The position numbers and the translations under genes were made by a program. From IMG/VR virus record IMGVR_UViG_3300013126_000013: DNA of 42,811 nt; one strand, written 5' to 3'. Positions 1 through 41,810 of the stretch are shown piece by piece (position 1 is the first letter of the stretch; each line of letters opens with the position of its first letter). Below the pieces are notes generated by a model. It made no database searches. It was not told where the DNA came from and saw nothing but the letters and a program-made list of their open reading frames with translations. Origin of the DNA: a virus (lineage: Duplodnaviria; Heunggongvirae; Uroviricota; Caudoviricetes).

Positions 1-113
1 TGTTCCATAAAGATTCGAAGATCCTCTTTGCTTTGAATATTGTTAGTCACAAGTAAAGAATGATTTTTGAGTAGGTTTGAATGTTCTTCAATTAGCGCTT
101 TGTTGAGCTTCAT
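1..113 (-). CDS. 5' part of a DUF3050-like (heme-oxygenase-like fold) protein, truncated by the window edge; not in the ORF track
   Basis: ATG at 113 with AAGGA upstream. Reads MKLNKALIEEHSNLLKNHSLLVTNNIQSKEDLRIFME(H/Q)..., resembling the DUF3050 N-terminus (L..H.L...I...EDLRIFMEH). Overlaps the end of the upstream rSAM gene. Confidence 0.55.
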   Translation of the reverse strand, partial: MKLNKALIEEHSNLLKNHSLLVTNNIQSKEDLRIFME

Positions 114-1443
114 TTCTTTTCCTTAATCCATTAATATATCTTCGCATATAATCTGTTGGTTCTGGTACATGTTTCATCACAACTGGTTGCCCAAAAAGCA
201 ATTGAAACGCGTGAAGTTGAATATTCCCCCACCAAACTTTTTCGAGAGCGCAATTAGAATAAAATACATGATCAGGAAACTTAATTGGACAAGAAGATCT
301 GCACAAGCGTTTCACTGGGCACTTCATGCAATGATTCTTCTTGCGTAGGATGTCCATACCCTTAATTTCTACCTTTGTCACATCTTCAAGACGACCGGCA
401 ATAAAGCTTCCATCTGTATGCGGACACAAGCGAACATTACCTTGAATATCAACTGATAAAATGTCGTTTGAGTCTGCGCCACATCCAGACTTTGTAGTGA
501 TAGGTGTGGCTCTTTTCAGAAACTTTGCGTATTCAATAATGCCTTCTTCTGAATACACTACGTTATTCTTTAAGAATCTTTTTCGCTCGATGTCAAGCAA
601 AGACTCTTGAGTGAACTGAAAAAGATGTGAAGCAAAATCTTTTAGTTTCTCTCCACGAAGAATATAATTTGACGAAGCTTCACCTGTATCGTGTACATCG
701 TAATTCTTTGCAGGAATAAACGTGATCTTCATGTATTTCTGGTCAACATCATTCGATTTACAAAAGTCCATGAAGTAATCATTGATTGCATAGAGGTCAT
801 GATTCTCGTTACTTACAACTGTCGAGAATCCTAACCCTACGTTTGGGAGACCTATTAGCTGCTTGACAACGTCGACTTTCTTTGAATTCTTCAGTATGTC
901 TTCTCCACGCAGTTTCTCTTGTCCAACTGCATCGTGTGAAAGACTAATGAGTACTCTTGCTTTTAACGATCGAAAGAAGTCAACGTGCTTTTGTACAAAT
1001 GCTGACCCATTTGTTGAAATAAAGAATTCACGATCAGGCGAATCGAAGAAAGACATAATGGCAACCATATCTTTCCAATAAAGAAATGGTTCACCTCCCC
1101 AAAGTTCTACTCGATGAAGTCTTTCAAGATTGAGACTACGCTGGACGTTTGTTATAAACGTCTCTGTGTAAATAGACTGTGGTCTTTCGAGCGGATTTCC
1201 AATATCCTTTTGCATGCAATATGTGCAGTTATAGTTACATGCATGACCCAGCAGAATTCGAATAGCAATTGGATTGTTTACTTTACTTGTAACACCATGA
1301 TTCTTTTCTTCTGCTTCATAATACGAAAGATTCCGCTCTGGAGGCAGGTTTAGTTGATCACCTAGAGTGTTAAATAACTTATTGTTATGTGAGTCATAAT
1401 AGAAAGATGTGCCATCTTTCAGTTCATAGTATTGATAATCCAT
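88..1443 (-). CDS. Radical SAM/SPASM-domain protein (451 aa)
   Basis: CNYNCTYC cluster motif, WGGEPF motif, and SPASM cysteines CGADS..VDIQGNVRLCPH..CMKCPVKRLCRSSCP..C. Confidence 0.92.
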   Translation of the reverse strand: MDYQYYELKDGTSFYYDSHNNKLFNTLGDQLNLPPERNLSYYEAEEKNHGVTSKVNNPIAIRILLGHACNYNCTYCMQKDIGNPLERPQSIYTETFITNVQRSLNLERLHRVELWGGEPFLYWKDMVAIMSFFDSPDREFFISTNGSAFVQKHVDFFRSLKARVLISLSHDAVGQEKLRGEDILKNSKKVDVVKQLIGLPNVGLGFSTVVSNENHDLYAINDYFMDFCKSNDVDQKYMKITFIPAKNYDVHDTGEASSNYILRGEKLKDFASHLFQFTQESLLDIERKRFLKNNVVYSEEGIIEYAKFLKRATPITTKSGCGADSNDILSVDIQGNVRLCPHTDGSFIAGRLEDVTKVEIKGMDILRKKNHCMKCPVKRLCRSSCPIKFPDHVFYSNCALEKVWWGNIQLHAFQLLFGQPVVMKHVPEPTDYMRRYINGLRKRNEAQQSAN

Positions 1444-1823
1444 TATGCGAGTAGGTCATCCCATGCATGACTGTGTGATCGAAGTAGTTCAACCTTATTT
1501 CTCATATCAGTATAGTGATCTGCCGTAATAGTTCCGCCAGCAGAAAACGTTGTAGTAACATTTGTAAAACCTGACACCGTGGACACGGTGTCAGTCGTAG
1601 AAACAGTTCCGGGCGAAGCTAAGTTACCAAATTCTTTAATCTGGCTATAATCTGTAAGCGTATGAGTGTGAGCGCCAACTGCGTTAATGAAGTCTTTTAA
1701 CATGGTGTAATGCGCAGCTTGCACCGTATTACCAGAAGCTACTTGCGCTAACAGTGGTGTTGTATAAGTTGTACGAAGAGATAGAGCTGGGCTTATCGAT
1801 GTTGTACCTGCTACTGCCGGCAT
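1443..1823 (-). CDS. Small Thr-rich protein (126 aa) with two HxH-ending repeats; candidate rSAM substrate or fibre-tip module
   Basis: SD AAGGA; TAATG coupling to the downstream rSAM; internal repeat at G31-D58 and G96-D123; no Cys. The ORF is well supported, the function is inferred. Confidence 0.75.
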   Translation of the reverse strand: MPAVAGTTSISPALSLRTTYTTPLLAQVASGNTVQAAHYTMLKDFINAVGAHTHTLTDYSQIKEFGNLASPGTVSTTDTVSTVSGFTNVTTTFSAGGTITADHYTDMRNKVELLRSHSHAWDDLLA

Positions 1824-1833
1824 GTTTAAATCC

Positions 1834-2979
1834 TTATTTAAAACTTATTATAGGAGCCGGATCGCCTGATGGGAAGTATAAACCAACCTCTGTTCTTCGG
1901 TATCCTAGCTCTATAAGCTTGTGATAGTATTTCGAGTTTTCGCTTAACATCATCTTTGGTATAAAGTTGAATTCTCTATTCACTACAAATGTATCTACTG
2001 TATTTATATAGTAGTCTCTAAATTTTTGAGCAGTAGCGTCTAATGCTGGTTGTAGCTCTTGAAAGAAAGAGCTATATAATTTAAACTTTCCGTCGATCAT
2101 ATCATACATAAACGCTCTATGATCAAAGTCGCCGTCCATAGTGTGGAACGGTTCCCAATTTATGTCTGTTGCGTCATCAATACTATAGAAGAAACGATCA
2201 CCATATAAGTGAAGTGATCCACGGTAGACCTGATATGTTCTATCATTATAACACAACACGTGGCTATTTTGATAATCAAACAGACCCTGTAGATCATGAT
2301 CAGCATTGCCTAATTCGTTATCTTTAACACTTCTCTTTCTATAATCGTTATGAAGAGACGTTACAATACCTTTATCGTTTATCCATTCAACGAGCTCTTT
2401 TGCGTGATATGGTAATTCTGTTTCTGTGGTTTTGATTACCTTGACTTTATGCAAATCGTATTTGTGAATATAATCTTGCAGTATCTCAATGATCTTGTTG
2501 TAGTTTTTCTTTGAGTTTACTTTGTTCATAAACTCTTCACTCAACGCAACTTCAGATAATCCTTTCATGTTAAGTTCCATGAGAGTTTTATGTTGCTTTA
2601 TGAGAGCATTATCAGTCATACCATATTCGAACGTAGAAGCATGTTCTTTATACCAGGAATAGACGTACGGATAGTTTTCTTTGAGGTACAATAAATCGTC
2701 GACGACTCTGATAACATAGAAGTAACTGAAAATCTCGTACCAACGCTTTTCTTCTTCAGCTGTTATCTTAACTGGCACAGCGCTTGCATAATATGGTAGG
2801 TGCTGATTTAGCTTTTGTTTAATATAGCAGACCTGACAATTTGCTCCACAATAATATTTGTTAGTGGGACTAAATGTAATATCATGATCTAAAGGTGCTA
2901 ATGCATCTTCAGTTATGAAGTATGCGCTATTATCTTTGAATTTTCTAAATTCTTCACCGGTGTAACTACTCATATCCAA
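1834..2979 (-). CDS. Divergent radical SAM protein (381 aa) without SPASM domain
   Basis: CGANCQVC (CxxxCxxC) near the N-terminus; no GGEP motif and no C-terminal Cys cluster. Confidence 0.65.
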   Translation of the reverse strand: MDMSSYTGEEFRKFKDNSAYFITEDALAPLDHDITFSPTNKYYCGANCQVCYIKQKLNQHLPYYASAVPVKITAEEEKRWYEIFSYFYVIRVVDDLLYLKENYPYVYSWYKEHASTFEYGMTDNALIKQHKTLMELNMKGLSEVALSEEFMNKVNSKKNYNKIIEILQDYIHKYDLHKVKVIKTTETELPYHAKELVEWINDKGIVTSLHNDYRKRSVKDNELGNADHDLQGLFDYQNSHVLCYNDRTYQVYRGSLHLYGDRFFYSIDDATDINWEPFHTMDGDFDHRAFMYDMIDGKFKLYSSFFQELQPALDATAQKFRDYYINTVDTFVVNREFNFIPKMMLSENSKYYHKLIELGYRRTEVGLYFPSGDPAPIISFK

Positions 2980-4063
2980 TCCAATGCAATAACGTTGGTT
3001 GCTGTTTTAATTTATGTAAATGTCTAACCATCAGGCTAATCGTTTTGTAGAAGTCAACACACTTGCCTCTAGGTTCTTCTTCAAACATGTGATACAAATA
3101 CTTTAACCCGCAAGCATCTCTCAAGTCACAAGTTTGGCATCCAGGCAGTATAAAGTCTTCTTCACTTTTTACGCGGTCGAGATACTGTTGACCTCTCCAT
3201 CGACCTACTCGAAACTCTTTTCTCTTATACTCAAGATAATCAAACTCCGGATATAGATAACCGTCTGGTGATAGAATTAACTTACCATGATTGTTCAAGT
3301 ATTGCTTATCTATCTTATCGTAATTACCATCGATATTCAGGTTGATTCCTTGAACGTAGAGAGAATGAATAAATCGCATTAGGTAAATACTATACCACTT
3401 TATGTCAAAGTCGTCAATCAATACTTTAAACTTTTGCTTTCCTCGATGATGCCGAAGAGGAATCAAATTTACCGTGTCACATCTACTTTCTTTACACGCG
3501 CTTATTACGGCTGAAAGAGTGTGTTCGTTGAACCCATCCGGCGGGCAAACAAATTGAAACATGAGATAACAATTGTTTCTGTACAAGACATCGGCTAGAC
3601 CCTTTAGATCGATCTTTTCACGATTGATTTCTTGATAATTGAAGTCATAGCTCAATGTAATATGTATGTGGTTCCACTTTTGAAAGAACCATTCATTCTC
3701 TACAATTAACGAACCGTTTGTAGTGATGTAATATTCAACGCTATCACCAAAAAGTGGATGAAGCAACTCCATGAGCTGGTCAATTCTCTTAATGTAGAGA
3801 AATGGTTCTCCACCATGAAAAGATATTGCTTTCAATTCTTTTGCGTGTTCTTTTGCGAGAGTCATAAATTTAACGATCTCGTCAAAGTCACGCTTTAACA
3901 AGTTTTGAGAACCGATCTCATCGCGAATATAGGCTCTATCACAATACACACAGTCGAAGTTGCAGAAGTCTCCGAGGTATATTGTAATTGCTTTTATTCC
4001 AGTAAAGTCGCGAGACTTGTCTTGTTGATTGAGTTCTGTTTGAATATGATGGTCGATATGCAT
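2966..4063 (-). CDS. Radical SAM protein with partial SPASM/twitch-like C-terminus (start may be GTG 4078 or ATG 4063)
   Basis: CNFDCVYC, FHGGEPFL, YYITTNG, LSPDGYLYP, CQTCDLRDAC..C. Confidence 0.88.
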   Translation of the reverse strand: MHIDHHIQTELNQQDKSRDFTGIKAITIYLGDFCNFDCVYCDRAYIRDEIGSQNLLKRDFDEIVKFMTLAKEHAKELKAISFHGGEPFLYIKRIDQLMELLHPLFGDSVEYYITTNGSLIVENEWFFQKWNHIHITLSYDFNYQEINREKIDLKGLADVLYRNNCYLMFQFVCPPDGFNEHTLSAVISACKESRCDTVNLIPLRHHRGKQKFKVLIDDFDIKWYSIYLMRFIHSLYVQGINLNIDGNYDKIDKQYLNNHGKLILSPDGYLYPEFDYLEYKRKEFRVGRWRGQQYLDRVKSEEDFILPGCQTCDLRDACGLKYLYHMFEEEPRGKCVDFYKTISLMVRHLHKLKQQPTLLHWIGYE

Positions 4064-5637
4064 TGTATGTAATAACACTTCACTATGTGAGAGTCAGGAT
4101 GGAATGTGAATTCTGGATAGCCATACGTTTTTGCTAGTATGTTGTATAGTTCTCTCAGATCTTTTGCCCCGAGCCACTCGTACATGATTTCCTCTGGCGT
4201 TTGAAGATCATTTCTGATCGAGATATAATGATCAAACATATCTTGACCCATTACATTTCCGCCAAGCGCTTCTCGAAAGAACGTTAACTCTGCTGACATA
4301 ACTTGTGGGCCAAGTTCTTCTAAGCGCTTGGCTCTCTTCTTTACATGTCGCATAAAGATCTTCTTACTTACGTCAGTTTGAAAATCAACGTATAGCTTCA
4401 CAATCTTTTGGCACATATCATCCGGTCTGAATATTCTTGATCCAGTATCAAGATTTCCTGCAGGGCATTGATAACATGCATTCTGATAATCACAAGTTCT
4501 GCACTGTTCCTCGGTTTGGAACATTTCATTATAAGCATTCTGAAAAGTCTTATAACGATCTACATATACTTTATCTTGAATCACATTTCCAAGTACAGCA
4601 ATGTCAGCTCCGTTTGATTTCTGATTTGTAAAGAAGTAACACCCTGAAAAGTCACCCGATGCATCAATAGCAACCATGTGTGAACCAACCATACAGTTTG
4701 AATCTTCTTTTTGGCCAACGCCTTCAGAAAACTTAATGTATAGATCATCGTACATTTCAAGAGCATTGAAAATCTTCGATCTCATCGATTGCCAGTTTTC
4801 TTCTTTCCAAGAAATAAACCCATGTTTTGAATCAAGCACGAGAGGATGCACAACCATATTGCGCACACCAAGAGAATACAGCTCGTCGATAAAGTTACCC
4901 ATGTCACGACTTGTTTCTTCGGAGAGTGTAGCACGAATTACAACTCGCATAGGATCATCAACAGTATCAACTGCTTTCTTGATTACTCCTTTCAGCTTGT
5001 TCATTTGAGCTGGAGTAATTTCACGATGATCGATAGTCGAATTGAAAGTATCAAGACTAATCATCATATGAGTGTATGACTTACTAAAATAGAATTCTGT
5101 AAATTCATCGTTCAGCAAAAGTCCGTTTGTACACATCGAGATATATGTGCCACGGTAATCACTATAATTTGAACTGAGTTCTTCGTCGTATGTTTCGATA
5201 AATTCTTTGATCAAAGGTTTATGAATCAGTGGCTCACCACCAAAGAATTGAAACACTTTCTTCTGGCCGTTATTACGGGAATTCATCCAATCATAAACTT
5301 GCTTTAGTGATTCTTTTGTAAACCGCCCAAAGTCTTTATTATGTTGCTCATAGCAATAAGAGCATGCAAGATTGCATGCATTCGTAAGCATTGCATTTAC
5401 TTGCACAAGATCCTTGAAAAGAACCTCTGCTTCAGAAAATGGAACTGCTGCTTCTTCGGACTTGGGAAGAACTGTGATGAGCTTATTAGATTTTTGACCT
5501 TTACTGGAAATGTTAATAGTTTCAACGGTGGTATGAAGAGTTCCTTCTTGGTCAATAACGGAAGGAGTATGATTTTTTAATCTGTTCTTTTGTGCTTCGC
5601 TTAAAACTCTTTTCACATTCACATAATTATCTGACAT
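3994..5637 (-). CDS. Radical SAM/SPASM peptide-maturase-like protein (547 aa)
   Basis: CNLACSYCY, FFGGEPL, CTNG; SPASM CMVG..IDASGDFSGC..CRTCDYQNACYQCPAGN..C; ATG directly abuts the stop of the 63-aa Cys-tailed peptide. Confidence 0.92.
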   Translation of the reverse strand: MSDNYVNVKRVLSEAQKNRLKNHTPSVIDQEGTLHTTVETINISSKGQKSNKLITVLPKSEEAAVPFSEAEVLFKDLVQVNAMLTNACNLACSYCYEQHNKDFGRFTKESLKQVYDWMNSRNNGQKKVFQFFGGEPLIHKPLIKEFIETYDEELSSNYSDYRGTYISMCTNGLLLNDEFTEFYFSKSYTHMMISLDTFNSTIDHREITPAQMNKLKGVIKKAVDTVDDPMRVVIRATLSEETSRDMGNFIDELYSLGVRNMVVHPLVLDSKHGFISWKEENWQSMRSKIFNALEMYDDLYIKFSEGVGQKEDSNCMVGSHMVAIDASGDFSGCYFFTNQKSNGADIAVLGNVIQDKVYVDRYKTFQNAYNEMFQTEEQCRTCDYQNACYQCPAGNLDTGSRIFRPDDMCQKIVKLYVDFQTDVSKKIFMRHVKKRAKRLEELGPQVMSAELTFFREALGGNVMGQDMFDHYISIRNDLQTPEEIMYEWLGAKDLRELYNILAKTYGYPEFTFHPDSHIVKCYYIQCISTIIFKQNSINKTSLATLLE

Positions 5638-5829
5638 TTAGATGCTGCCTCGAGAACAGTTACACTGACAGTTCGAAGTATAGTCATCACTAAACGTATG
5701 GCTGTGCTGAATTAGCGCATCAAGCACATCAACCATCTGTCGAAAAGATGCTGCGTCAATGGTCTGCCCAGTCGTCTTCGCTGTAGTGGATCCAGCTGCG
5801 GTGAATGTGCTTGTGTTATCTGCAACCAT
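5638..5829 (-). CDS. 63-aa candidate precursor peptide with HSH motif and C-terminal NCQCNC
   Basis: SD AAGGA; TAA-ATG adjacency to the 547-aa rSAM; shares a motif with the 126-aa protein. Confidence 0.8.
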   Translation of the reverse strand: MVADNTSTFTAAGSTTAKTTGQTIDAASFRQMVDVLDALIQHSHTFSDDYTSNCQCNCSRGSI

Positions 5830-5834
5830 GTTCG

Positions 5835-6842
5835 TTATCCTTTAGCTACGATAAATTCTATCTTATATTTGCCCGCAGTAGCAGTACGATCATACCTATT
5901 TATAATTGAATCTATATTGTATTCTAAGGTAATATACCCAAAGTGTCGAGTCGGATCTACATGTATTTTTCCGTCCTTCACTTTTACAGTTAAATTGGTT
6001 TTGATTTCTCTGTCAAATTTTATAGCGCTTCCGTACTTACCGAAGTATGTGCCGCCCTCGTACTCATGTATAGTAAACTGGGACGTAGTAAAGATTGTAT
6101 TTCTATTCACCATATACGCTCCAGAACCTTCAATTCTTGGCACTAAAAAATATTCTTCTACAGTAGCGTCATAGGCATCCATACTAAACACATGATGAGA
6201 ATTGTCATAAACGTTCGAATCAATACTGGGCATTGATACCAGATGCGGGTTGAGCACACAGATAACTAGTTCTTTGTTTTTCGTTCTTTTAAAAACACAG
6301 TACGTTACTGTGGCGATAGAAGCTAATCCGTCGATTGGATTGTTATCGCCACTTATGTTAATCACATTAAAATCATCGTCTCGAGCATAGTAATAAGATT
6401 TAGCCATCAGGGTTTTTTTGTTCATAGCGATATTGCTGAGTGGCGTTCCCAGTGCCACCCACGAATACTTTTCTAAATACTCATACACTTCATCAAGATT
6501 AATAACTCTACTGTTGTCTGGATCTAAGCTAACGCTTGGAGTCAAATATTCTTTGAGAATGAGTTGGCCCCTCGACTCGCCTACTTCAGTATTCATTCCC
6601 GAATTATTCGTTTCTATCACGTATTTAAATGATTCAGACTCAAACTGCTCAAGTACCGGCGCTTTCAGTGTATGAATACGTTCATCTTTTACTATATTGG
6701 CAAGTGAAGATCTTCCAGAATTAACTGGCATGTATAGTCCATTAAATGACCACTTATCACCGATGGCAAGATTCATTACATCAGTACAATTTTCCCAAAT
6801 AGGAGGTCGTCTTGACGCCCAAATGAAGGCCCAATTAATCAT
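5835..6842 (-). CDS. Hypothetical protein (335 aa) within the rSAM cluster
   Basis: Long ORF, ATGA overlap with the upstream gene, no recognised motif. Confidence 0.75.
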   Translation of the reverse strand: MINWAFIWASRRPPIWENCTDVMNLAIGDKWSFNGLYMPVNSGRSSLANIVKDERIHTLKAPVLEQFESESFKYVIETNNSGMNTEVGESRGQLILKEYLTPSVSLDPDNSRVINLDEVYEYLEKYSWVALGTPLSNIAMNKKTLMAKSYYYARDDDFNVINISGDNNPIDGLASIATVTYCVFKRTKNKELVICVLNPHLVSMPSIDSNVYDNSHHVFSMDAYDATVEEYFLVPRIEGSGAYMVNRNTIFTTSQFTIHEYEGGTYFGKYGSAIKFDREIKTNLTVKVKDGKIHVDPTRHFGYITLEYNIDSIINRYDRTATAGKYKIEFIVAKG

Positions 6843-7414
6843 AGTGACCTCATATATTCTATTATTTCTTCGGCTGAATTTCCATCAAAAAACACATCAA
6901 ATTTATCTTTATGACTTCTTAAAAAGTTCGAATAAGATTCTTGAAATAAATTTGCAGCTTCTTCGCTTAGATTTTCATGTGTTACAAGATGATCGATACT
7001 GCGCGGTGTTACCCATCCAATATAGGTATGAGGTACCTGAGGTCGATTGCCCGAATACGCAATAGGCAAAACAACGAGTCCATTTAATTCTTTATCTAAA
7101 TATGTGGTCGCTTCATACTTTAGAAATATGAATCGATTCATGTCATGAAAAGCTTCTTCAAAAAACTTTATGTATGATTCTTGGTCTTTAAAAGATTCGA
7201 AGACGTACTTATAGTTTCCGGATTTAAATGCATCGACGATATCTTTACTATATTTGTGATGTATCAAATTCTTTGTGATAATATCAAGAAAATACGCATC
7301 TTCCATGCAATATTGAATAAAATTATCGACATACCAAGGATTTACGCTATTACGTATTTTGTTGTTGACGTCGTCAATTTCAATATTCATTGCTAATACA
7401 ATTCTTTTTAGCAT
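6839..7414 (-). CDS. Hypothetical protein (191 aa) within the rSAM cluster
   Basis: Overlaps both neighbours on the same strand; no recognised motif. Confidence 0.7.
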   Translation of the reverse strand: MLKRIVLAMNIEIDDVNNKIRNSVNPWYVDNFIQYCMEDAYFLDIITKNLIHHKYSKDIVDAFKSGNYKYVFESFKDQESYIKFFEEAFHDMNRFIFLKYEATTYLDKELNGLVVLPIAYSGNRPQVPHTYIGWVTPRSIDHLVTHENLSEEAANLFQESYSNFLRSHKDKFDVFFDGNSAEEIIEYMRSL

Positions 7415-9435
7415 GGATTTACCTCTATTGTCTTAAACATTTTGTTTGATCCAGACACAGAACATAGTTTAATGAAATATCTGTTTACTCTCTCATTCAT
7501 GTCGTATTTATGCCAATCAATGTTGTGATGAAGGTCTGTGTATGTTTTATCCAATGGAGTATTAACATATGTACCTTTGATCAAATTTTCCGACATCCAA
7601 TCATATTCACTTATGAATTGTGTAGGATTATCGGGATTATAATCAATCCACTTAACAGAATTGATGCTCCAGTTAACTAGATCATCGAGCTTCTCATCTT
7701 CTCCAAACTCGTTTATGATCCAAGCCTTGACTGCTTGGTAAAATTTATGGCGATTGAGGTTGATCATGATGTTGATCAGAGCTGGCATCTTTGCGTACAA
7801 CTTCCATGGTAGACCATCTAGTCGATAGTATTCGAAGTTGATCGCACTTTTTTCCTTTACTTTCTCCTGAGCCTGCAGTATAATGCTATTAAGCACAGAA
7901 AATTGGATAGATTCTAAATAGTCAATGCTGATGAATGTCTTATAGAATCTCTGATAAAAAGTAGAGTGTGGTATACCGATAGAGTCTAAATACTGAGTAA
8001 TTCTGCGAAGGTAGCCTTCAGTCTCCATCGTGAAGATAATACCATCAGACACAAGCATCTCAACATAGTCTTCTCGAGTGTATGACATAGTAGCTACAAC
8101 AATCTTCGATGGCTGTACATACTCTGGTGCTTCGATAAGACCTCTTTGTTTGATCAAAGACCCACTCATCAGTACATCTTCACGAATAACGGCGTCTTTT
8201 GTAGATTCAGTTAAAGATTCAATCGTCTCGAGCTTAAACTTTTTGATGTAATCAGGATGTGAAGCGGGTGATGTTGGAAGAAGATGCCATGTGTATTTTT
8301 CCCAGAACACATTTAGCTTTGCCATTTCACCAGCTGCAAAGTAGTAGTTCTGCAGTGTGGTACCAGGAAGGCCTCGAATTAATTCTGCTCGAATCTTAAT
8401 GCCAAACTCTTCACGAAGTTCATTATAAGCTTTAAATTGCTTTTCCCACGGCTCATCAATTCGATCAATGTTTTTCAGGACTTGTGGATCCATGTCTTGC
8501 ATCGAGATCTTGAAACCAGATGATAGACCATGTTGAGCCATAAGTCTATCGATCTTGTATACGTTTGATTTCTTTGATTTGCTTAAACCAGCAAACACTA
8601 TTTCTTTTGGCGCGCCATATTTTGCTTTGAGCTCGCAAACATACTCCATGATTTCTACATCGCGATCAAGCTGACCGAGGTTTGCTTCGACCATGTGTAA
8701 GTCTTCTAGAGCGCCATTTTCTGCAAGCCATGTTAAGTCTTCAATAATATCTTCAGTTGGACGAAATGAAACCTTTGAGTTGATTCCACCGCTCCACTCG
8801 CAGAACGTGCATCCATACGGGCATCCGCGATGAGTTTCGTAGATAGCCTGAAGCGTTACACCTGGAATGCGATTATCGATCACATCTTTGATATAGTATT
8901 TATTACGTTCAAAGATTTTCTTTGGCCAAGTAAATAAACGCTTGTTAAATACAACAGACGAAGTGATATAACTATCGTCCTTCGCCATCACCATAAATGG
9001 GACTTTCATCCAATCTTTATCAGTCTCTATTTGATAGAGCAATTCGTTTATGAAAGGCTCTCCATACCCATCAGTTTGGCACGTAAAATCTATGTACGGG
9101 TATTTCTTAAAATAATCTGGGTCTTCCTTATATTCACAATAAGGACCACCGAATGCAATATGAACGTAAGGTCTAATTTCTTTAATTAGCCGAGCTACTT
9201 CTCGAGACAATCCTACATTCCATACATAGACGGAGAATCCCACAAGTGTAGGATCTTTTGACAAGATATCATCGACAAGTTTATGAACGTCATCCGCTCT
9301 TGAAGAAGAAATTGGGTAGTGCCAATTCCACTTAGCACTACCCTTATAATTATCTTCTACATATGATTTAAACGAAAGCCATGCGTAGTCATATACATTA
9401 TCGCGTATGGTGTAATTTACATAAACAAAATTCAT
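7408..9435 (-). CDS. Cobalamin (B12)-binding radical SAM protein, class B methyltransferase-like (675 aa)
   Basis: N-terminal B12-binding motif LVGFSVYVWN...HIAFGGP followed by ETHRGCPYGCTFCEW; SD AAGGA. Confidence 0.9.
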   Translation of the reverse strand: MNFVYVNYTIRDNVYDYAWLSFKSYVEDNYKGSAKWNWHYPISSSRADDVHKLVDDILSKDPTLVGFSVYVWNVGLSREVARLIKEIRPYVHIAFGGPYCEYKEDPDYFKKYPYIDFTCQTDGYGEPFINELLYQIETDKDWMKVPFMVMAKDDSYITSSVVFNKRLFTWPKKIFERNKYYIKDVIDNRIPGVTLQAIYETHRGCPYGCTFCEWSGGINSKVSFRPTEDIIEDLTWLAENGALEDLHMVEANLGQLDRDVEIMEYVCELKAKYGAPKEIVFAGLSKSKKSNVYKIDRLMAQHGLSSGFKISMQDMDPQVLKNIDRIDEPWEKQFKAYNELREEFGIKIRAELIRGLPGTTLQNYYFAAGEMAKLNVFWEKYTWHLLPTSPASHPDYIKKFKLETIESLTESTKDAVIREDVLMSGSLIKQRGLIEAPEYVQPSKIVVATMSYTREDYVEMLVSDGIIFTMETEGYLRRITQYLDSIGIPHSTFYQRFYKTFISIDYLESIQFSVLNSIILQAQEKVKEKSAINFEYYRLDGLPWKLYAKMPALINIMINLNRHKFYQAVKAWIINEFGEDEKLDDLVNWSINSVKWIDYNPDNPTQFISEYDWMSENLIKGTYVNTPLDKTYTDLHHNIDWHKYDMNERVNRYFIKLCSVSGSNKMFKTIEVNPC

Positions 9436-9443
9436 TTTATTCC

Positions 9444-12296
9444 TTATAGGATAACAGCCTCTACCATTAGCGATCCATCTTCAAGAGCAATTGCGAATGA
9501 CCAGGCACTTCTGCCGTTGTCCACATGCGCATAACCCGGAGTAGTTGAAGGAGCTAGTCTGTCGCCCTTCTTGCAGCCACCGATTACTTTAACCGGAACG
9601 CGACCCTTCAGAGCGATTGCTGTACCACCTTCTAGATCACTGTTCATGAGATAAGCCGGCTTTTCCGAAACCACACCTAGCACTGCATGTGCATTATTAA
9701 CATCCGCCGCGGTTACTTCTGCTGAACCGCCGACAGCAATTACTGTACCGACTTCATAGTCTTGATCTGCAAGATAGTTTTCTGCAAGGTCAGCGTACTG
9801 AGCAGTTGTTGCAGTACCGTTAAATGTGGTAGCAAACACCGTTGCAAATCTAAGTGTAGACGAACCTAAGTTATAAACGTTAGTCGTATCTGGCAATGCG
9901 GATCCACTATAGCGAAGTGTTGGGAATGTCTTCGTACCAGAGATTATTTGTGTACCTGACGTGCGTACTACTGTTTCATCTACTGTAAAAGTTCTATTAG
10001 CTGATAGATCACCACCTCCAGCTAAACCATCTCCTGCTGTGACACTTCTAGATGTTCGAACGATTGTAGTAGGAATTCGTGCATCATCCACATTTCCGGA
10101 TGTGATATTTGTGCCATTAATATTAGTAATAGCAGAACCAATACCAGCAAATGATACCGCCGTAATCGTATTCGCAGCGAAGTTACCAGAAGCATCACGG
10201 GCTACAACTTTTCCAGCAGTTGCAAGGTTAGTTGCATCCACATCCCATGTTACTGCTGCTGAACCGTTGAAGTTTGATCCGGTAAGATAAGCTCCAGCGG
10301 TATGTGCTTGGTTCGTATTTGCGGTGACTGTTATATTAGCCGAACCGTTGAAACTTACACCGTTAATCGTTCTTGCAGTAGCAAGAGTCGTTGCTGTCGT
10401 GGCGTTACCGACAAGATCTGCAGTGATTGTGTTTGCAGCAAAGTTACCAGAAGCATCACGGGCTACAACTTTTCCAGCTGTAGAAGTTGTGGTAGCATCA
10501 ACCGCCCATGTAGTTGCAGCTCCACCGTTGAAGTTTGATCCAGTGAGATATGTACCACGAGTAAGAGTGTTTGGTGTATTTGCCGTAATTGTGATTGCTG
10601 CAGAACCATCAAAGTTAACACCGTTTATCGCGCGGGCTGTAGCAAGAGTTGTAGCCGTTGAAGCATTTCCAACCAGAGCTGCAGTGATAGTATTTGCAGC
10701 AAAGTTACCTGAGGCGTCGCGAGCTACGACCTTCGAGGCAGTAGAAGTTGTAGTAGCATCAACAGCCCAAGTAGTGGCTGCTGAACCATCAAAGTTGGAG
10801 CCGGTAAGATAAGTACCACGAGTAAGAGTGTTATTCGTATTCGCTGTTACGGTAATATTTGCAGAACCGTTAAATGATACACCATTGATCGTACGAGCAG
10901 TTTGTAATGTAGTAGCGGTAGATGCATTACCTACCAGTGCTGCGGTTACGGTCGTTGCAGTAACCGTATTGGACGTTACATTATTTGCAAATACCCTATT
11001 CCAGCGCATCAAGTCAGAGCCTACAGAATAAGAAACGTTTGCAGTAGGAATCAATGATGAGCCAACATTACTTGTAGTAACTGTTATAACGTCAACAGTA
11101 TTGGCCGTTACATTATTTGCAAATACCCTATTCCAGCGAGCGAGATTCGATCCAAGAGAATAAGAAACGTTTGCAGTAGGTAACACGTCAGTATCAAATC
11201 CGGCACTTCCAACAAATGACATCGTATTTGTCACGTTAAAATCGTGTACATCAGACGAACTTACTACAAGTGTAACGTTCGATGAGAAATAAGATGTTCC
11301 ATACACATACAAGTCACGGCGTATAATCATGTCACGATCAACTTCAGCATCGACCTGAATGTTAACACTGTTTGCAACATCGAGATCTTTTACCCAAGCT
11401 TTATTCCAAGTGGCAGAACTTGAACCAATATTGTATGTAGTTGTAGTATCCGGAAGTATGCCTGTCGAAGATACTATAAGAGGTGTCACTGTAGCTGAAG
11501 TATTCGCGAGACTTAAATTGAGCGAGTATAGAGTAGAGTTTGTACTTTGTGTCTTAATAGTTCTTGCACTTGTGCCCTTTAATCTAACTTCATCTGTAGC
11601 CTCAAGAGCTGTTACTGTTGTGTTAGATCCGGTAAATGCAGCATTTGCAGTTACAGTGAGAATACCGTCGATATTTGTGTTTGAATTAAAATCAGCTAAG
11701 CTATTTACTACAAGAGAATCTGACGCGTTGAAGCCAAGAGTAATTACGTCGACGTTAGCATTTAGCGAGGCGGCAGTTACTATTGTATTTGAAGTAACAT
11801 CAAAGGTTGTACCGTCAATATCAACGCGAGTGCCAGTGAATTCCGAATTCGTACGTACAAACAATTGACCTGCGTTGATGGTCGTATTTGCTGCAGAAAT
11901 TAAGACCGTCTTTGTCGAATCAATTGCTACGTTACTCGTAAATGTTGTATTATTCGAGTTAATCGTAAAGTTATCGGTGTTTGCCGAAATGCGAACAAGG
12001 GGTGATTCAGAAAAGATAGTATTTGAAACTATTGTTAGGTCACCACCAGTACTTACCGATCCGCCTCTGAGTCTATTCGATACTACAACTGTATTCGCTG
12101 AGAAGATACCTTCAAGATGAGCGTTACCAGTAGTGTATCCACCAACGGTTACGTTTGGCTGTGGTTGCGTTACCGAAGTGAGTACTACAGTTCCCATATC
12201 GTATACGAGAGAGTTGGTAGTATCGACCCATGAAGCAAAAGTATCTGTTGCTTCAACGTTCGCACCTGCAGCTAAATAGATGTGTGCCTTTGCCAT
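9444..12296 (-). CDS. Tail fibre (950 aa) with tandem repeats and a C-terminal peptidase G2-like intramolecular chaperone
   Basis: N-terminal TDTF..W...TN motif; T/A/N/V/G-rich; P...Y.lGS...W repeats; C-terminal YADLAENY...GVVSEKPAYLMN...ALKGRVPVKV. Confidence 0.85.
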   Translation of the reverse strand: MAKAHIYLAAGANVEATDTFASWVDTTNSLVYDMGTVVLTSVTQPQPNVTVGGYTTGNAHLEGIFSANTVVVSNRLRGGSVSTGGDLTIVSNTIFSESPLVRISANTDNFTINSNNTTFTSNVAIDSTKTVLISAANTTINAGQLFVRTNSEFTGTRVDIDGTTFDVTSNTIVTAASLNANVDVITLGFNASDSLVVNSLADFNSNTNIDGILTVTANAAFTGSNTTVTALEATDEVRLKGTSARTIKTQSTNSTLYSLNLSLANTSATVTPLIVSSTGILPDTTTTYNIGSSSATWNKAWVKDLDVANSVNIQVDAEVDRDMIIRRDLYVYGTSYFSSNVTLVVSSSDVHDFNVTNTMSFVGSAGFDTDVLPTANVSYSLGSNLARWNRVFANNVTANTVDVITVTTSNVGSSLIPTANVSYSVGSDLMRWNRVFANNVTSNTVTATTVTAALVGNASTATTLQTARTINGVSFNGSANITVTANTNNTLTRGTYLTGSNFDGSAATTWAVDATTTSTASKVVARDASGNFAANTITAALVGNASTATTLATARAINGVNFDGSAAITITANTPNTLTRGTYLTGSNFNGGAATTWAVDATTTSTAGKVVARDASGNFAANTITADLVGNATTATTLATARTINGVSFNGSANITVTANTNQAHTAGAYLTGSNFNGSAAVTWDVDATNLATAGKVVARDASGNFAANTITAVSFAGIGSAITNINGTNITSGNVDDARIPTTIVRTSRSVTAGDGLAGGGDLSANRTFTVDETVVRTSGTQIISGTKTFPTLRYSGSALPDTTNVYNLGSSTLRFATVFATTFNGTATTAQYADLAENYLADQDYEVGTVIAVGGSAEVTAADVNNAHAVLGVVSEKPAYLMNSDLEGGTAIALKGRVPVKVIGGCKKGDRLAPSTTPGYAHVDNGRSAWSFAIALEDGSLMVEAVIL
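10164..10946 (-). repeat. Three tandem 261-nt (87-aa) repeats in the tail fibre
   Basis: Units start at 10946, 10685 and 10424: TA(A/D)LVGNA.TATTL.TAR.INGV.F.GSA.IT.TANT...KVVARDASGNFAANTI. Confidence 0.95.
10960..11190 (-). repeat. Two 44-aa-spaced (132 nt) repeats in the tail fibre
   Basis: PTANVSYS(L/V)GS.L.RWNRVFANNVT twice; 33-nt identical block starting at 10974 and at 11106. Confidence 0.9.
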
Positions 12297-12511
12297 TACT
12301 GCTTACTTGCTCCTAATTCTCGTACCGCTTGGCGGATGTCTAACATCATAGACATTATGTCTTGTACGTTACGCTCAAGCTTATCTAAGCGTAATGCATC
12401 TTCTTTTTTCTTTTTGTGCTCTGCGAGAGCTCTTCTATTTGTATTTATTAGAGCTCTCGTAGTAACATCACGCGAATAATCTTTTTCTTCGGTTTGAATA
12501 AACTCTTGCAT
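12296..12511 (-). CDS. Small conserved T4-like hypothetical protein (71 aa)
   Basis: RD..T.ALINT motif plus a coiled-coil; TAATG-coupled on both sides. Confidence 0.8.
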   Translation of the reverse strand: MQEFIQTEEKDYSRDVTTRALINTNRRALAEHKKKKEDALRLDKLERNVQDIMSMMLDIRQAVRELGASKQ

Positions 12512-32030: not shown

Positions 32031-32038
32031 TATAAATA
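32031..32038 (+). promoter_or_regulatory. T4-type late promoter for gene 4
   Basis: Exact TATAAATA 33 nt upstream of the gp4 ATG. Confidence 0.8.
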
Positions 32039-32054
32039 CGTAGGTAGTTTAAGA

Positions 32055-32062
32055 TATTTATA
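32055..32062 (-). promoter_or_regulatory. T4-type late promoter for the gp48-to-baseplate/tail operon
   Basis: Exact TATAAATA on the minus strand 33 nt upstream of the gp48 ATG. Confidence 0.8.
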
Positions 32063-32071
32063 TGGACATTC

Positions 32072-32530
32072 ATGGCGTATTACCAGGGCAGATTCAAACC
32101 AAAGAATCCACAAAAATATAAAGGTGATCCGACTAATATCGTATACAGATCTGGTTGGGAACTCAAACTATTCAATTATCTCGATGAACATCCAAACGTA
32201 ATCAAATGGGGTAGCGAGGAATTAGTTATTCCCTACAAGAGTCCTATCGACGGCCGTTGGCATCGATACTTTCCAGACGTTTATGTAGAACAGATCGGTA
32301 TAGAAGGAAAAAAGCAAACTATATTGATTGAAGTAAAGCCAAAAAGTCAAACAGTTGCACCGAATCCAGATAATAAGTTAACCGCTAAAGGTAAACCTAC
32401 TAAACGTTACCTCACTGAGGTTATGACTTACGGGGTAAATCAGGCTAAATGGAAAGCAGCTCAAGAATTTTGTGCAGATCGAGGTTGGAACTTCTTAATC
32501 ATGACTGAAATAGAACTAGGTATTAAATAG
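32072..32530 (+). CDS. gp4: Head completion protein gp4 (TnsA-like nuclease fold)
   Basis: YQGRFKPKNPQKYKGDPTNIVYRSGWE...WGSEE..IPY.SP.DG..HRYFPD...IEVKP. Confidence 0.95.
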   Translation: MAYYQGRFKPKNPQKYKGDPTNIVYRSGWELKLFNYLDEHPNVIKWGSEELVIPYKSPIDGRWHRYFPDVYVEQIGIEGKKQTILIEVKPKSQTVAPNPDNKLTAKGKPTKRYLTEVMTYGVNQAKWKAAQEFCADRGWNFLIMTEIELGIK

Positions 32531-33115
32531 TTTGCAGTTATCGAAGTGCCATCTTTTCATTTGGTTAAGTTTACCAATTTTATTGCAATGTGGACAATTA
32601 ACGGTTGGCCTGGCTTTAGCGATACTTGAAAGAGATTCTTTATGAGATTCAGTAAAAATCATCCCTGTATGAGCATTTGACATATTTACTCTGTGTCTAT
32701 CGCTATATTTTCTTCCAATTTTTGCTTCAGACATCTTTTTTCTTTGGTAGTCAGATTTTTTAACGCCTCTAAATCTTTTTGATACTAGTGCTTTCTCTTC
32801 ACTTGACATTTGTCTTCCAAGTGTATTTGGTGGAGCTCTCCAGACCATATTGTAATATGTCTCATCTAAATCTGCGCGCACTCTTTTTAAAAAACGACTT
32901 TCTAATTTTTGAATATAGTTGTAATCTCTATGGTGTATAATTTTTACGCGTAAAAAGTCATTTGGCCTAGTGTTATATTCTCTTCTAAATACTGTGCCAC
33001 TTCCAATGTAAGAATAACCACGTGATCCGTTATGAATGCCGATATAACGCTTTTTTGTAAGTGTGTCTAGCCAAACATACAAATACGGTTTTGTAGCTAT
33101 GCTATAAATAGTCAT
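32516..33115 (-). CDS. Free-standing GIY-YIG (Seg-like) homing endonuclease with NUMOD3-type repeats
   Basis: YLY..KRYIGIH..YIGSG, later E; S....KMSEAK.G helices; C-terminal CPHC..G....RWHFDNCK. Confidence 0.85.
   Translation of the reverse strand: MTIYSIATKPYLYVWLDTLTKKRYIGIHNGSRGYSYIGSGTVFRREYNTRPNDFLRVKIIHHRDYNYIQKLESRFLKRVRADLDETYYNMVWRAPPNTLGRQMSSEEKALVSKRFRGVKKSDYQRKKMSEAKIGRKYSDRHRVNMSNAHTGMIFTESHKESLSSIAKARPTVNCPHCNKIGKLNQMKRWHFDNCKLFNT
33103..33110 (+). promoter_or_regulatory. Candidate late promoter for gene 2, embedded in the first codons of the antisense endonuclease gene
   Basis: Exact TATAAATA ~92 nt upstream of the gp2 ATG. Confidence 0.6.
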
Positions 33116-33187
33116 GCTGGAACTCCTAAGTTTCTAGAGTAGGTGGGGATTCTTCCCGGTCTCCCGTGACCTACATCAATATTTATA
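33116..33187 (-). promoter_or_regulatory. Late promoter plus structured leader of homing endonuclease 1
   Basis: TATAAATA-5nt-GTAGGT CAC GGGA(12 nt)TCCC C ACCTAC-TCTAGAAAC-TT-AGGAGTTCCAGC-ATG. Confidence 0.8.
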
Positions 33188-38187: not shown

Positions 38188-38279
38188 GAGAATTTGTCGA
38201 CAAGTATTATTTTCATCTTCTTATCGTAGTTGATGAATGGCCTTACCTTGCCAACAAATCTATTTATACTCGGAGTCAT
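38166..38279 (-). pseudogene. Relic second copy of the gene 59 3' end
   Basis: MTPSINRFVGKVRPFINYDKK-MKIILVDKFS aligns with gp59 FPQIKRTVEKVRPFVSYDKKKMKQFLLERFA. Confidence 0.75.
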
Positions 38280-38415
38280 TACGTTTTAGCTCTTTGTACA
38301 AATTTATTTGCTGAGAACGTTGAAGGTGTTCAGCGTATTCTATTACCTTATGCATAGGTATGAGTCCATAAGAAACTGCTTGATGAGCTTTTTCTAAACA
38401 TTCATTTCAAGTCAT
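38260..38415 (-). pseudogene. Small ORF interrupted by TGA at codon 3
   Basis: ATG ACT TGA AAT GAA TGT... is open for 48 further codons (NECLEKAHQAVSYGLIPMHKVIEYAEHLQ...EYK); SD weak. Confidence 0.35.
38261..38268 (-). promoter_or_regulatory. Late promoter upstream of gene 32
   Basis: Exact TATAAATA on the minus strand ~125 nt upstream of the gp32 ATG. Confidence 0.7.
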
Positions 38416-38429
38416 GTGATCTAACCAAG

Positions 38430-38504
38430 TATAAATAGAAATGTAGTTCGCGGAATATGTGAGAGTCTTCCCAACTACTCTAGAAACAACAGGAGTTCCA
38501 GCAT
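38430..38504 (+). promoter_or_regulatory. Late promoter plus structured leader of homing endonuclease 2
   Basis: TATAAATA-5nt-GTAGTT CGC GGAA(12 nt)TTCC C AACTAC-TCTAGAAAC-AAC-AGGAGTTCCAGC-AT-ATG. Confidence 0.8.
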
Positions 38505-39170
38505 ATGACTATTTATCATACACCTTTCACCTATCTCATTGGTTGGAAAAATCACGATCTTTGGTACTATGGTGTTAGATACGCCAAAGGATGCAAACCA
38601 GAAGATCTGTGGTTAACCTATTTTACCTCATCGGCTAAGGTATGTCAACTACGAAATGAATTAGGCGAACCTGATGTTGTTGAGGTAAGAAGGGTTTTTA
38701 CCAATGCAAAGGCTGCAAAGATGTGGGAAGAAAGGGTCCTTCGCCGTTTAGACGTTCTTAATACAACGAGATGGTTAAACGCGAATATTGGTGGCACATT
38801 TAATCCGCTGCGTGGAAAAGACCATCCATCGTATGGGACTAAATGGAGTGATGAATTCAGAGCTAAAGTGATGTTAACTAGGGCGTCTAACAACTATTCA
38901 CACGGCGAATCAACCAGACTTAAGATTTCAGAGTCGTGTAGGGGTTATAACCATTCGCCTGAGGCGATTCAAAAGATCAAAACAGCTAGAAAAACCCAAG
39001 AACCTACTTTCGTCGGTAAAACACATTCAGAAGAAGCTAAGAAACGTATGTCTGCCACTAGATTAGCTAATCAGAAGATTGTTATGTGTCCACATTGCGC
39101 TAAAACTGGTGCACACAATATCATGGCGAGATGGCATTTCGACAAGTGCAAATCACGCAAACCTCTCTAG
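38505..39170 (+). CDS. Free-standing GIY-YIG-like homing endonuclease with NUMOD3-type repeats
   Basis: FTYLIGW..WYYGVRY...YFTSS...WE.RVL; HSEEAKKRMS; C-terminal CPHC..G....RWHFDKCK. Confidence 0.82.
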   Translation: MTIYHTPFTYLIGWKNHDLWYYGVRYAKGCKPEDLWLTYFTSSAKVCQLRNELGEPDVVEVRRVFTNAKAAKMWEERVLRRLDVLNTTRWLNANIGGTFNPLRGKDHPSYGTKWSDEFRAKVMLTRASNNYSHGESTRLKISESCRGYNHSPEAIQKIKTARKTQEPTFVGKTHSEEAKKRMSATRLANQKIVMCPHCAKTGAHNIMARWHFDKCKSRKPL

Positions 39171-40844: not shown

Positions 40845-41810
40845 TTATTTGATACTCGAAACCATTTCTTGAGTTGCTGCAAGTTCTGGGTCAGGAACAA
40901 GACCGTACTGAGCAAGAGCGCCTTCAGGGCCGGCCATATCATCACTTACAAAGAATTCAACATATTCTTTAAGACCCGGAATAACACTGAGATGTGCATT
41001 CTTTACATAGAAGTAAAGTGGACGGCTGATAGGATAATCACCACTTGCAATCGTCTCCACGCTCGGGAATACACCGCTTACAGTAGTGACTTCTAGTTTA
41101 TTCGTGTTGTTCTGATAGAAGCTAAGACCAAATACACCAAGTGCCGTTTTATTTGCATCGAGGCGAGCAAGGGTTTCAGTGTAGTCACCATCGATATCAA
41201 CTGACGCGCCGTCTGTACGAACCTTAACACATGACTTCTTTTGATCATCATCTAGCTTCTCAACACCGAGTGCTTGCTTACATCCTTCTTCCATAACCTT
41301 CACATCAAACACTTCACGCGTGCCGTGCTTTGTTCCTGGAATATAAGCAATGATCTCTACTGCTGGTAGAGTAGAATCCACATCGCTCCAAAGCATTGCG
41401 GTGCTATCAGCATGCAATGCGGTATAGAGTTGAAGAACTGTTAGATCCTTAATGCCCAATTGGCCGATGTTCGACGCAAACACGATACCGTCGTAGCCAA
41501 TGCGAACCTCAGTCACTTCACCGATTACTTCTTCGCATTTAGCCCACTCTTCGTCTTTCATTTTTGATGAACTGTTTGCAATGTCAACAGTGTTTTCGCC
41601 AACTCCTTCACAGAGTTTCTTACGACCAGCGCCGGATCCACCGCCCTCTACGACTGGCGAAGGAAATTCAAAGTTTTCACCGAATGCTTCTGCTACAATT
41701 GTTGCATAAGGAAGAACTGTAGATGATCCAGTTACTTGTACGTTATCTCTTGCATATGCGGTAGATGCTACTACTAAAGCTAATGTAGTACTAATTAAAA
41801 ATGTCTTCAT
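40845..41810 (-). CDS. pstS: Phosphate ABC transporter substrate-binding protein PstS (auxiliary metabolic gene)
   Basis: Signal peptide; GSSTVLPYA, GGGSGAG, DIANSSS, RIGYDGIV, GTREVF, YPISRPLYFYVK. Confidence 0.93.
   Translation of the reverse strand: MKTFLISTTLALVVASTAYARDNVQVTGSSTVLPYATIVAEAFGENFEFPSPVVEGGGSGAGRKKLCEGVGENTVDIANSSSKMKDEEWAKCEEVIGEVTEVRIGYDGIVFASNIGQLGIKDLTVLQLYTALHADSTAMLWSDVDSTLPAVEIIAYIPGTKHGTREVFDVKVMEEGCKQALGVEKLDDDQKKSCVKVRTDGASVDIDGDYTETLARLDANKTALGVFGLSFYQNNTNKLEVTTVSGVFPSVETIASGDYPISRPLYFYVKNAHLSVIPGLKEYVEFFVSDDMAGPEGALAQYGLVPDPELAATQEMVSSIK

Follow-up and report, generated by a model that had tools for sequence, protein, structure and literature searches.

The stretch of DNA analysed here (the window, 42,811 nucleotides) comes from the virus record IMGVR_UViG_3300013126_000013 (Caudoviricetes), and the system in question is a small gene, pep (5638..5829, minus strand), together with the gene of a 547-aa radical S-adenosylmethionine (SAM)/SPASM enzyme, A547 (3994..5637, minus strand). 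The stop codon TAA of pep is directly joined to the ATG of A547, as the initial annotation had read it, and the two genes are translationally coupled; a Shine-Dalgarno-like AAAGGA is present ahead of the pep start. The product of pep, defined from its open reading frame (ORF), its homologues and their alignment, is a cysteine-tailed module protein of 63 aa. Its N-terminus is variable and rich in Thr, Ser and Ala. Residues 21 to 50 (nt 5680-5769) comprise an amphipathic helix followed by the motif HxHxFxDDY, and residues 53 to 63 (nt 5641-5673) constitute the tail N-C-Q-C-N-C-S-R-G-S-I. The ORF translation places all three cysteines of the protein in this CxCxC tail, after the HxH motif and the DDY stretch, in agreement with the first reading of the sequence.

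A search of 5.8 billion protein clusters recovered 29 homologues of pep with a length of 63 to 68 aa (E 1e-32 to 7.5e-18). The family is small, since a profile search over 1.84 billion cluster representatives gave just 89 clusters at E<=1e-3. The alignment reveals that the residues G21, I24, M32, H42, H44, D48, C54, C56, C58, R60 and G61 are invariant. The first 20 residues vary, the sequence is near-fixed from G21 on, and the C-terminal 40 residues are conserved throughout, including the R-G-x-hydrophobic end; the invariant His-His-Asp triad is on par with the cysteines in conservation. About 60 viral loci (labelled L0xx) were fetched via A547, and their ORFs were classified with profiles built from the proteins of the window. 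The codon changes between pep and close relatives are mainly synonymous; between pep and its homologue in L011 there are 18 synonymous and 6 non-synonymous differences over 42 codons. A chance ORF or a gene read on the wrong strand is ruled out by the conservation and by this synonymous excess, and pep is a real conserved gene. No family was found for it at E<=0.01 in NCBIfam, Pfam or PHROG, and it was matched neither by the SCIFF, CXXX-repeat and Cys-every-fifth models nor by other named models of Cys-rich precursors. The profiles of pep and of its paralogue p126 (see below) gave nothing meaningful against the PDB sequences.

Over 45 distinct tails, the C-terminus of the pep homologues follows the formula (Cys-X)n, then x-Arg-Gly, then one to three more residues. 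The number n is comprised between 3 and 6, the tail of the window (n = 3) being the shortest form. At the 161 between-Cys positions of these 45 peptides, the residue X is Q (50), N (48), A (30), E (22) or D (11) and no other, that is 81% of D/E/N/Q and 19% of Ala. The tail thus appears to behave as a repeat core, and the early suggestion that CxCxC is the core gains from the variable n and from the restricted set of intervening residues. The maturases of ranthipeptides use Cys donors near Asp, Asn, Glu, Gln or Thr acceptors, and such an arrangement is found in the tail of pep; the types of residues between the cysteines match the acceptor types of the ranthipeptides and of QhpD (PMC8326336). 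The spacing is C-x-C, as opposed to the C-x3 or C-x4 of the named precursor families; the initial annotation had likewise remarked a tighter spacing than in the CxxxC or six-Cys families. Large fibre proteins ending in a Cys tail were not found among the fetched loci. One pep homologue (L063:9793-10416, minus strand) contains an insert of about 135 aa inside the Cys repeat, the host protein being otherwise of about 70 aa. The insert begins with C-F-A-G-D-T-L-I and ends with K-N, after which the Cys repeat resumes, with T-R-G. This insert resembles a mini-intein, a call that is mainly motif-based (Pfam Intein_splicing at E 0.05 only).

The helix-HxHxxxD module, an amphipathic helix followed by the His/Asp motif, is present three times per cassette, once in pep and twice in p126 (1443..1823, minus strand), a paralogue of 126 aa that has no Cys and was recognized by hhalign and alignment. 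The second half of p126 is the homologue of the conserved part of pep (hhalign probability 96.8%, E 2.9e-10). The invariant residues of p126 are His52, His54, Asp58, His117 and His119, with nothing else but the initiator Met. In the Atlas, p126 matched only unnamed viral clusters, with scores under 0.9. The proteins P0165, P0176, P0188 and P0185 are composed of two or three modules and end in a Cys tail; pep and p126 are therefore one kind of protein. In P0190 the Cys run is continued by a linker rich in Pro and then by a domain of about 180 aa. Some other fusions join Cys-less modules to further domains, including fibre-like Gly-rich and C-terminal domains. In the locus L072, module proteins occur amid fibre-like genes; radical-SAM genes are absent there over 10 kb, and the Cys tail is missing too. 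On the basis of the fusions and of L072, we consider the helix-HxH module as a building block of the fibre region, of which the Cys tail tracks the radical-SAM enzymes. The same locus encodes a p126-like protein of 497 aa (L072:8498-9991, plus strand) that has, besides two modules, a further domain and a Hint-like segment (Hom_end_hint, E 1.9e-4, which does not reach the cut-off).

The assignment of A547 was based on Pfam, sequence motifs and the predicted fold. The Pfam model Radical_SAM covers residues 84-250 (62.6 bits, cut-off 29.5) and the model SPASM residues 315-383 (21.2 bits, slightly under the cut-off of 21.5); the latter is matched in all 31 members of the A547 alignment (best E 5.6e-6). 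In these 31 sequences the CxxxCxxC cysteines Cys88, Cys92 and Cys95 are invariant, as are the SPASM cysteines Cys315, Cys333, Cys379, Cys382, Cys388, Cys391 and Cys409 and the residue Gly328. They fit the seven-Cys SPASM pattern C-x9-15-G-x4-C, gap, C-x2-C-x5-C-x2/3-C, gap, C. Seven cysteines for two clusters would leave one open iron site in A547, by analogy with the cluster of CteB that has an open coordination site (PMC8326336). The AlphaFold2 model (predicted local distance difference test, pLDDT, of 74) displays a partial TIM barrel and the SPASM fold. Its matches in the VIA fold search, over residues 70-434, are CteB (Z 21.0, root-mean-square deviation 4.3 over 319 aligned residues), anSME (Z 19.9) and ChlB (Z 19.4). 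CteB is also the closest solved relative by sequence (E 3.6e-18), and PapB is the top NCBIfam model (NF047865, E 2.6e-35, 122.2 bits for a cut-off of 340). The top curated models are all Cys-directed maturases, namely PapB, CXXX-repeat, nif11-type, QhpD and CcpM. The nearest relatives of A547, CteB and PapB, form Cys-to-carbon thioethers, the chemistry that the first reading had in view. The SCIFF maturase model TIGR03974 was not among the 25 best models.

Both extensions of A547 recorded in the initial annotation, and viewed there as possible substrate-binding parts, are real. The N-terminal one has about 78 aa and a low pLDDT, the radical-SAM core starting near residue 80. It is not universal, since it is lacking in P0058, P0087 and P0088, though the loci of these proteins keep pep. 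The C-terminal extension of about 125 aa, variable in sequence, is predicted with confidence as a helical bundle past the SPASM domain (residues 405-533). The prediction of a complex between A547 and pep gave a score of 0.43, with 0.02 for the best control, which supports the pairing weakly: the mark used admits 58 of 80 solved complexes and 2 of 110 mismatched pairs, and among scores of 0.60 or less it admits only 7 of the 80 solved complexes and both mismatches. The runs share at least 29% of contacts, and the pLDDT of the partner is at least 41.

The two genes are part of a minus-strand run that begins 8 nt past the gene of a 950-aa tail-fibre protein (9444..12296, minus strand, identified by tail-fibre PHROGs). 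The order of the run is: B12 radical SAM of 675 aa, 191-aa protein, p335, pep, A547, B370, p381, p126 and C451. A core composed of p126, pep, p335, A547, B370, p381 and C451 recurs in nearly all of the viral loci, and the cassette is also present in the Ralstonia jumbo phage RP12. Among the 62 loci with upstream DNA, pep is present in 57; it abuts A547 in 34 and is separated from it by p335 alone in 22, and in two further loci it lies on the opposite strand. The precursor-maturase pair proposed in the initial annotation is thus conserved and usually adjacent, but it is not a simple two-gene sactipeptide or ranthipeptide locus, because the cassette contains four to five radical-SAM enzymes and a paralogous 126-aa HxHxxxD protein. 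The unit is a conserved cassette of four radical-SAM enzymes (four to five in all), p335 and two related small proteins. Classical clusters of peptides that the ribosome synthesizes and that are modified after translation (RiPPs) are recognized by a leader protease and/or an exporter; no protease, exporter or immunity gene was found among the cassette genes of the window or of the related loci. The cassette usually has fibre genes or baseplate genes for neighbours, in lineages that include T4-like and phiKZ-like ones. In a set of 185,579 species genomes the cassette was found three times, all three contigs containing the whole cassette and two of them coming from metagenome bins. With only three enzyme-bearing contigs in this set, the cassette is essentially phage-specific.

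In RP12, an unannotated homologue of pep of 65 aa with four tail cysteines is encoded at L001:14889-15086 (plus strand; NC_041911.1, 82888-83085). This ORF is flanked by ORF074, which is homologous to p126 and has two modules, and by ORF075, which is homologous to p335; the radical SAM genes ORF076-079 follow downstream. ORF080 of the same phage is annotated as MgoB-like. In L007, a phage contig of 267 kb, three genes of iron-sulfur assembly, two of them Fe-S_biosyn/IscA-like and the third NifU_N, directly follow the cassette (L007:16320-17394), and this phage appears to supply clusters to its own radical-SAM enzymes. A HamA_HO-like gene (DUF3050, haem-oxygenase-like) is found after the last radical-SAM gene in several loci (L006:14430-15185, L007:15562-16323 and L009:15656-16417). 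The 451-aa gene of the window is followed downstream by bases 1-87, and a HamA_HO-like gene at this place would run off the 5' end.

The gene adjacent to pep on its other side encodes p335 (5835..6842, minus strand), a protein of 335 aa of no known family, defined by the comparison of loci and by its fold and always located beside pep. It evolves much faster than pep, with 10-33% identity between loci, and is found in two tandem or nearby copies in L029, L033, L051, L055 and L063. Its fold is predicted with confidence (pLDDT 90) and includes a C-terminal Ig-like sandwich. No family was found for p335 in Pfam, NCBIfam or PHROG, no usable match in the Atlas, and only template modelling (TM) scores of 0.18 or less with Foldseek. 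The VIA-wide fold search recovered only the common Ig-like sandwich (residues 226-335, Z of 7.8 or less), the N-terminal 225 residues being unmatched.

The other radical-SAM enzymes of the core are also encoded on the minus strand. B370 (2966..4078), of 370 aa, was identified by domain models and comparison of the loci; its longest ORF is overlapped by the 3' end of A547. The divergent radical-SAM-like protein p381 (1834..2979), of 381 aa, matches phrog_36229 and no Pfam model, and all complete copies that were found contain CxxxCxxC. C451 (88..1443), of 451 aa, is a radical SAM/SPASM enzyme according to domain models and is the sole radical-SAM enzyme of the reduced variant L069. In L063, a 758-aa ORF (L063:5037-7313, plus strand) carries a B370-type domain ahead of an A547-type domain, with two Radical_SAM stretches, and this fusion functionally links the two types. 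A 191-aa protein of unassigned function (6839..7414, minus strand) and a B12-binding radical SAM enzyme of 675 aa (7408..9435, minus strand) are both restricted to the cassette subgroup of the window. The latter is methyltransferase-like, with 132 bits against the KedN5-family model for a cut-off of 700.

The virus of the window is a T4-like marine myovirus. Besides the cassette, the window has genes for the hub and wedge proteins of a baseplate, for a tail tube protein, for gp32 and for PstS, and genes that are homing-endonuclease-like. By the baseplate wedge protein, the nearest cultured relatives are the Sinorhizobium phiM12-type phages (45% identity). A megablast of positions 1-12300 against phages gave a single match, a fibre repeat of 56 nt. 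The gene of the PstS-like phosphate-binding protein (40845-41810, minus strand; PBP_like_2, E 1.5e-48) belongs to the auxiliary genes that are typical of marine phages. Amid the structural and replication genes are found a protein with a TnsA-like endonuclease N-terminal domain (32072-32530, plus strand) and a NUMOD3-motif protein (38505-39170, plus strand), which are probably mobile genes of the homing-endonuclease type.

The T4-type late-promoter-like motif TATAAATA occurs at 5897..5904 (minus strand), 67 nt upstream of the pep ATG and within the 3' end of the p335 gene. The window contains eight matches of this motif for 2.95 expected. Six of the eight (32031-32062, 33103-33187 and 38261-38437) are located in short intergenic stretches just upstream of divergent gene starts and, judged by the motif and its position, are probably late promoters of the T4 type. 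Over the loci, 9 of 47 contexts of pep and 7 of 46 of p126 have the motif in the 250 nt upstream of the gene, compared with 2.1% of background windows.

Taken together, pep and A547 are a real co-translated pair in a phage-specific cassette of the tail-fibre (host-recognition) region. That this cassette serves maturation, with the Cys tail being cross-linked and the product being associated with fibres, has in our judgement about an even chance of being correct. In the mechanism that we propose, pep would be the one-module and p126 the two-module member of a family of small fibre-associated proteins. One or more enzymes of the cassette would bind the module protein, the adjacent A547 being the prime candidate. 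The radical SAM cluster of A547 would abstract a hydrogen while the open SPASM iron site holds a Cys thiolate, and each Cys sulfur would form a bond with a carbon atom in an Asn, Gln, Asp, Glu or Ala next to it. The outcome may be a compact thioether ladder, as in ranthipeptides or QhpC. The other radical-SAM enzymes, with the B12 enzyme in the subgroup of the window, probably modify the shared His/Asp module or add links. The product probably stays a cross-linked protein acting with p335 at or near the fibres, rather than undergoing cleavage and export as an antibiotic. The more complete proposal, that the radical-SAM set of the phage installs a ladder of thioether (perhaps His/Asp) cross-links in the module proteins of the tail-fibre/host-recognition apparatus, is a tentative one that we would hold to be possible rather than probable.

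Several observations weigh against this cross-linking of a fibre-associated protein. A547 lies far under all curated family cut-offs, and its fold leaves the reaction undecided because CteB leads anSME, ChlB and TigE by only about one Z unit (SuiB is also within 1 to 3). A search for a RiPP recognition element (RRE) gave no Pfam PqqD match at E<=1 in the 31 members of A547. The alignments of A547 to CteB, SuiB, SkfB and TigE begin at residues 68-75 with no RRE aligned, in a search made with the full-length model only. Nor is A547 the exclusive candidate: in L069 the only radical-SAM enzyme beside a Cys-repeat module protein is of the C451 type, and L070 has A547- and B370-type enzymes only. 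The loci L063, L069 and L070 tie the enzymes to one another and to the module proteins without fixing which enzyme acts at which site. The invariant His-His-Asp and the CxC run are classic metal ligands. The tail-fibre region is also a hotspot of accessory cassettes (PMC7029224), for which reason adjacency to fibre genes is weak evidence by itself. Finally, the 32 proteins listed from mass spectrometry of the RP31 virion include no cassette protein (PMC5468394, Table S3), which counts as weak negative evidence, the analysis being based on gel bands and the 65-aa ORF unannotated.

A547 might modify the shared HxHxxxD module, for example with a His/aromatic cross-link of the cyclophane or dynobactin type, and another enzyme such as C451 might handle the Cys tail. 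This pairing would account for a triad that is invariant in all three modules of each cassette and for the reduced locus L069, and the SPASM fold match is compatible with thioether, cyclophane (ChlB, Z 19.4) and other chemistries alike. However, A547 adjoins the Cys-tailed protein and not p126 in 34 of 57 loci, in L070 a three-module protein with a Cys tail is retained alongside A547 and B370, C451 being absent from the locus, and the top models of A547 (PapB, CXXX-repeat, QhpD and CcpM) are Cys-directed. We regard this other pairing as rather doubtful, and A547 acting on the tail as the better candidate.

CxC runs are typical of metallothioneins, and the HxH, Asp and CxCxC residues of pep could instead bind Fe, Zn or an iron-sulfur cluster in a structural or accessory protein, possibly in a trimer in the manner of the HxH sites of the T4 fibre proteins gp37 and gp12, the cysteines being unmodified and the enzymes acting elsewhere. 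The invariant residues are indeed metal ligands, the hydrophobic pattern of the helix is heptad-like, some modules are joined to Gly-rich and C-terminal domains of a fibre-like kind, and module proteins exist without nearby radical-SAM genes (L072). Yet in L072 the Cys tail disappears where radical-SAM genes are missing within 10 kb. The restriction to Q/N/E/D/A at 161 of 161 between-Cys positions suits acceptors better than spacers, the tail has 3 to 6 Cys repeats depending on the homologue, and the loci conserve the translational coupling to a SPASM enzyme. Moreover, pep and p126 have no relative in the PDB, and their likeness to a fibre His-box is a motif of three residues. An unmodified metal site is thus improbable. 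A diffusible RiPP, in which the N-terminus and helix would be a leader and the Cys tail a sactipeptide or ranthipeptide core that is cleaved and acts on competitors, the host or host defences, is equally improbable. It could draw on a small ORF coupled to a SPASM enzyme with RiPP-maturase relatives, on the repeat-like core and on the weakly supportive complex prediction (0.43 against 0.02), but none of the roughly 60 cassettes contains a protease, transporter or immunity gene, the supposed leader module also builds proteins of 120-390 aa and the Cys-free p126, P0190 continues after its Cys run with the Pro-rich linker and the domain of about 180 aa, the C-terminal 40 residues are all conserved, including R-G-x-hydrophobic, while the N-terminus is variable, and no RRE was found with Pfam PqqD or in structural alignments.

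Radical SAM/SPASM enzymes cross-link Cys-rich peptides in bacterial natural-product and cofactor pathways. To our knowledge, such enzymes have not been described as conserved parts of phage structural operons, and we know of no virus particle of which a part is hardened or matured enzymatically in a RiPP-like manner. The family of the substrate, its C-x-C spacing and its helix-HxHxxxD module are undescribed, as is the constant association of four radical-SAM enzymes with p335. The system occurs almost solely in large phages, among them RP12 and RP31, two cultured phages of Ralstonia. If the product belongs to the host-recognition apparatus, it would represent a new way for viruses to mature their particles chemically; if it is a released peptide, it would represent a new phage-borne class of RiPPs. 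In either case the enzyme chemistry would be new, and RP12 makes the question testable at the bench.

Among the known systems, the SCIFF ranthipeptide synthase CteB and its substrate CteA (PDB 5WGG/5WHY) resemble the pair of the window in combining a radical SAM and SPASM enzyme with a small Cys-rich substrate, and one of the iron sites is open in an auxiliary cluster of CteB (PMC8326336). The identity between CteB and A547 is only 18%, and the RRE of CteB (residues 1-89) has no aligned counterpart in A547. Unlike CteA, pep matches no SCIFF model, and A547 is encoded in a phage, beside tail-fibre genes and three more radical-SAM enzymes. In PapB/PapA (freyrasin) and NxxcB/NxxcA, repeated cysteines are linked to the beta-carbon of Asp or Asn acceptors a few residues off (PMC8326336). 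The cysteines of the pep family are likewise flanked by N, Q, E or D, but their spacing is C-x-C instead of C-x3-D or N-x-x-C, the cassette has no leader protease or exporter, and pep is homologous to a larger Cys-free protein (p126).

The SPASM enzyme QhpD forms Cys-Asp and Cys-Glu thioethers in QhpC, which stays in a larger assembly and is not secreted (PMC8326336). QhpD/QhpC is the nearest analogue for the maturation of a protein rather than of an antibiotic, and the QhpD model matches A547 with an E-value of 1.6e-20 (73 bits for a cut-off of 453). The locus of the window differs from that of QhpD by its phage context and by having no dehydrogenase genes. HxH metal sites are present in the T4 fibre proteins gp37 and gp12, and HxH in proteins of the fibre region is thus common to T4 and to the module, a likeness of three residues. 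The module follows a heptad-like helix beside fibre genes, and the pep and p126 profiles show no relation to solved fibres.

The literature that was covered, which excluded subscription journals, contained no paper on the pep family, nor any on phage fibre proteins being modified by radical-SAM enzymes. Radical-SAM cassettes were listed without interpretation in the host-recognition clusters of pelagimyophages (PMC7029224), and ORF76-79 of RP12 and RP31 were listed with no substrate or function proposed (PMC5468394). These cassettes are of the same kind and in the same place as that of the window, and the RP12 copy is syntenic with it.

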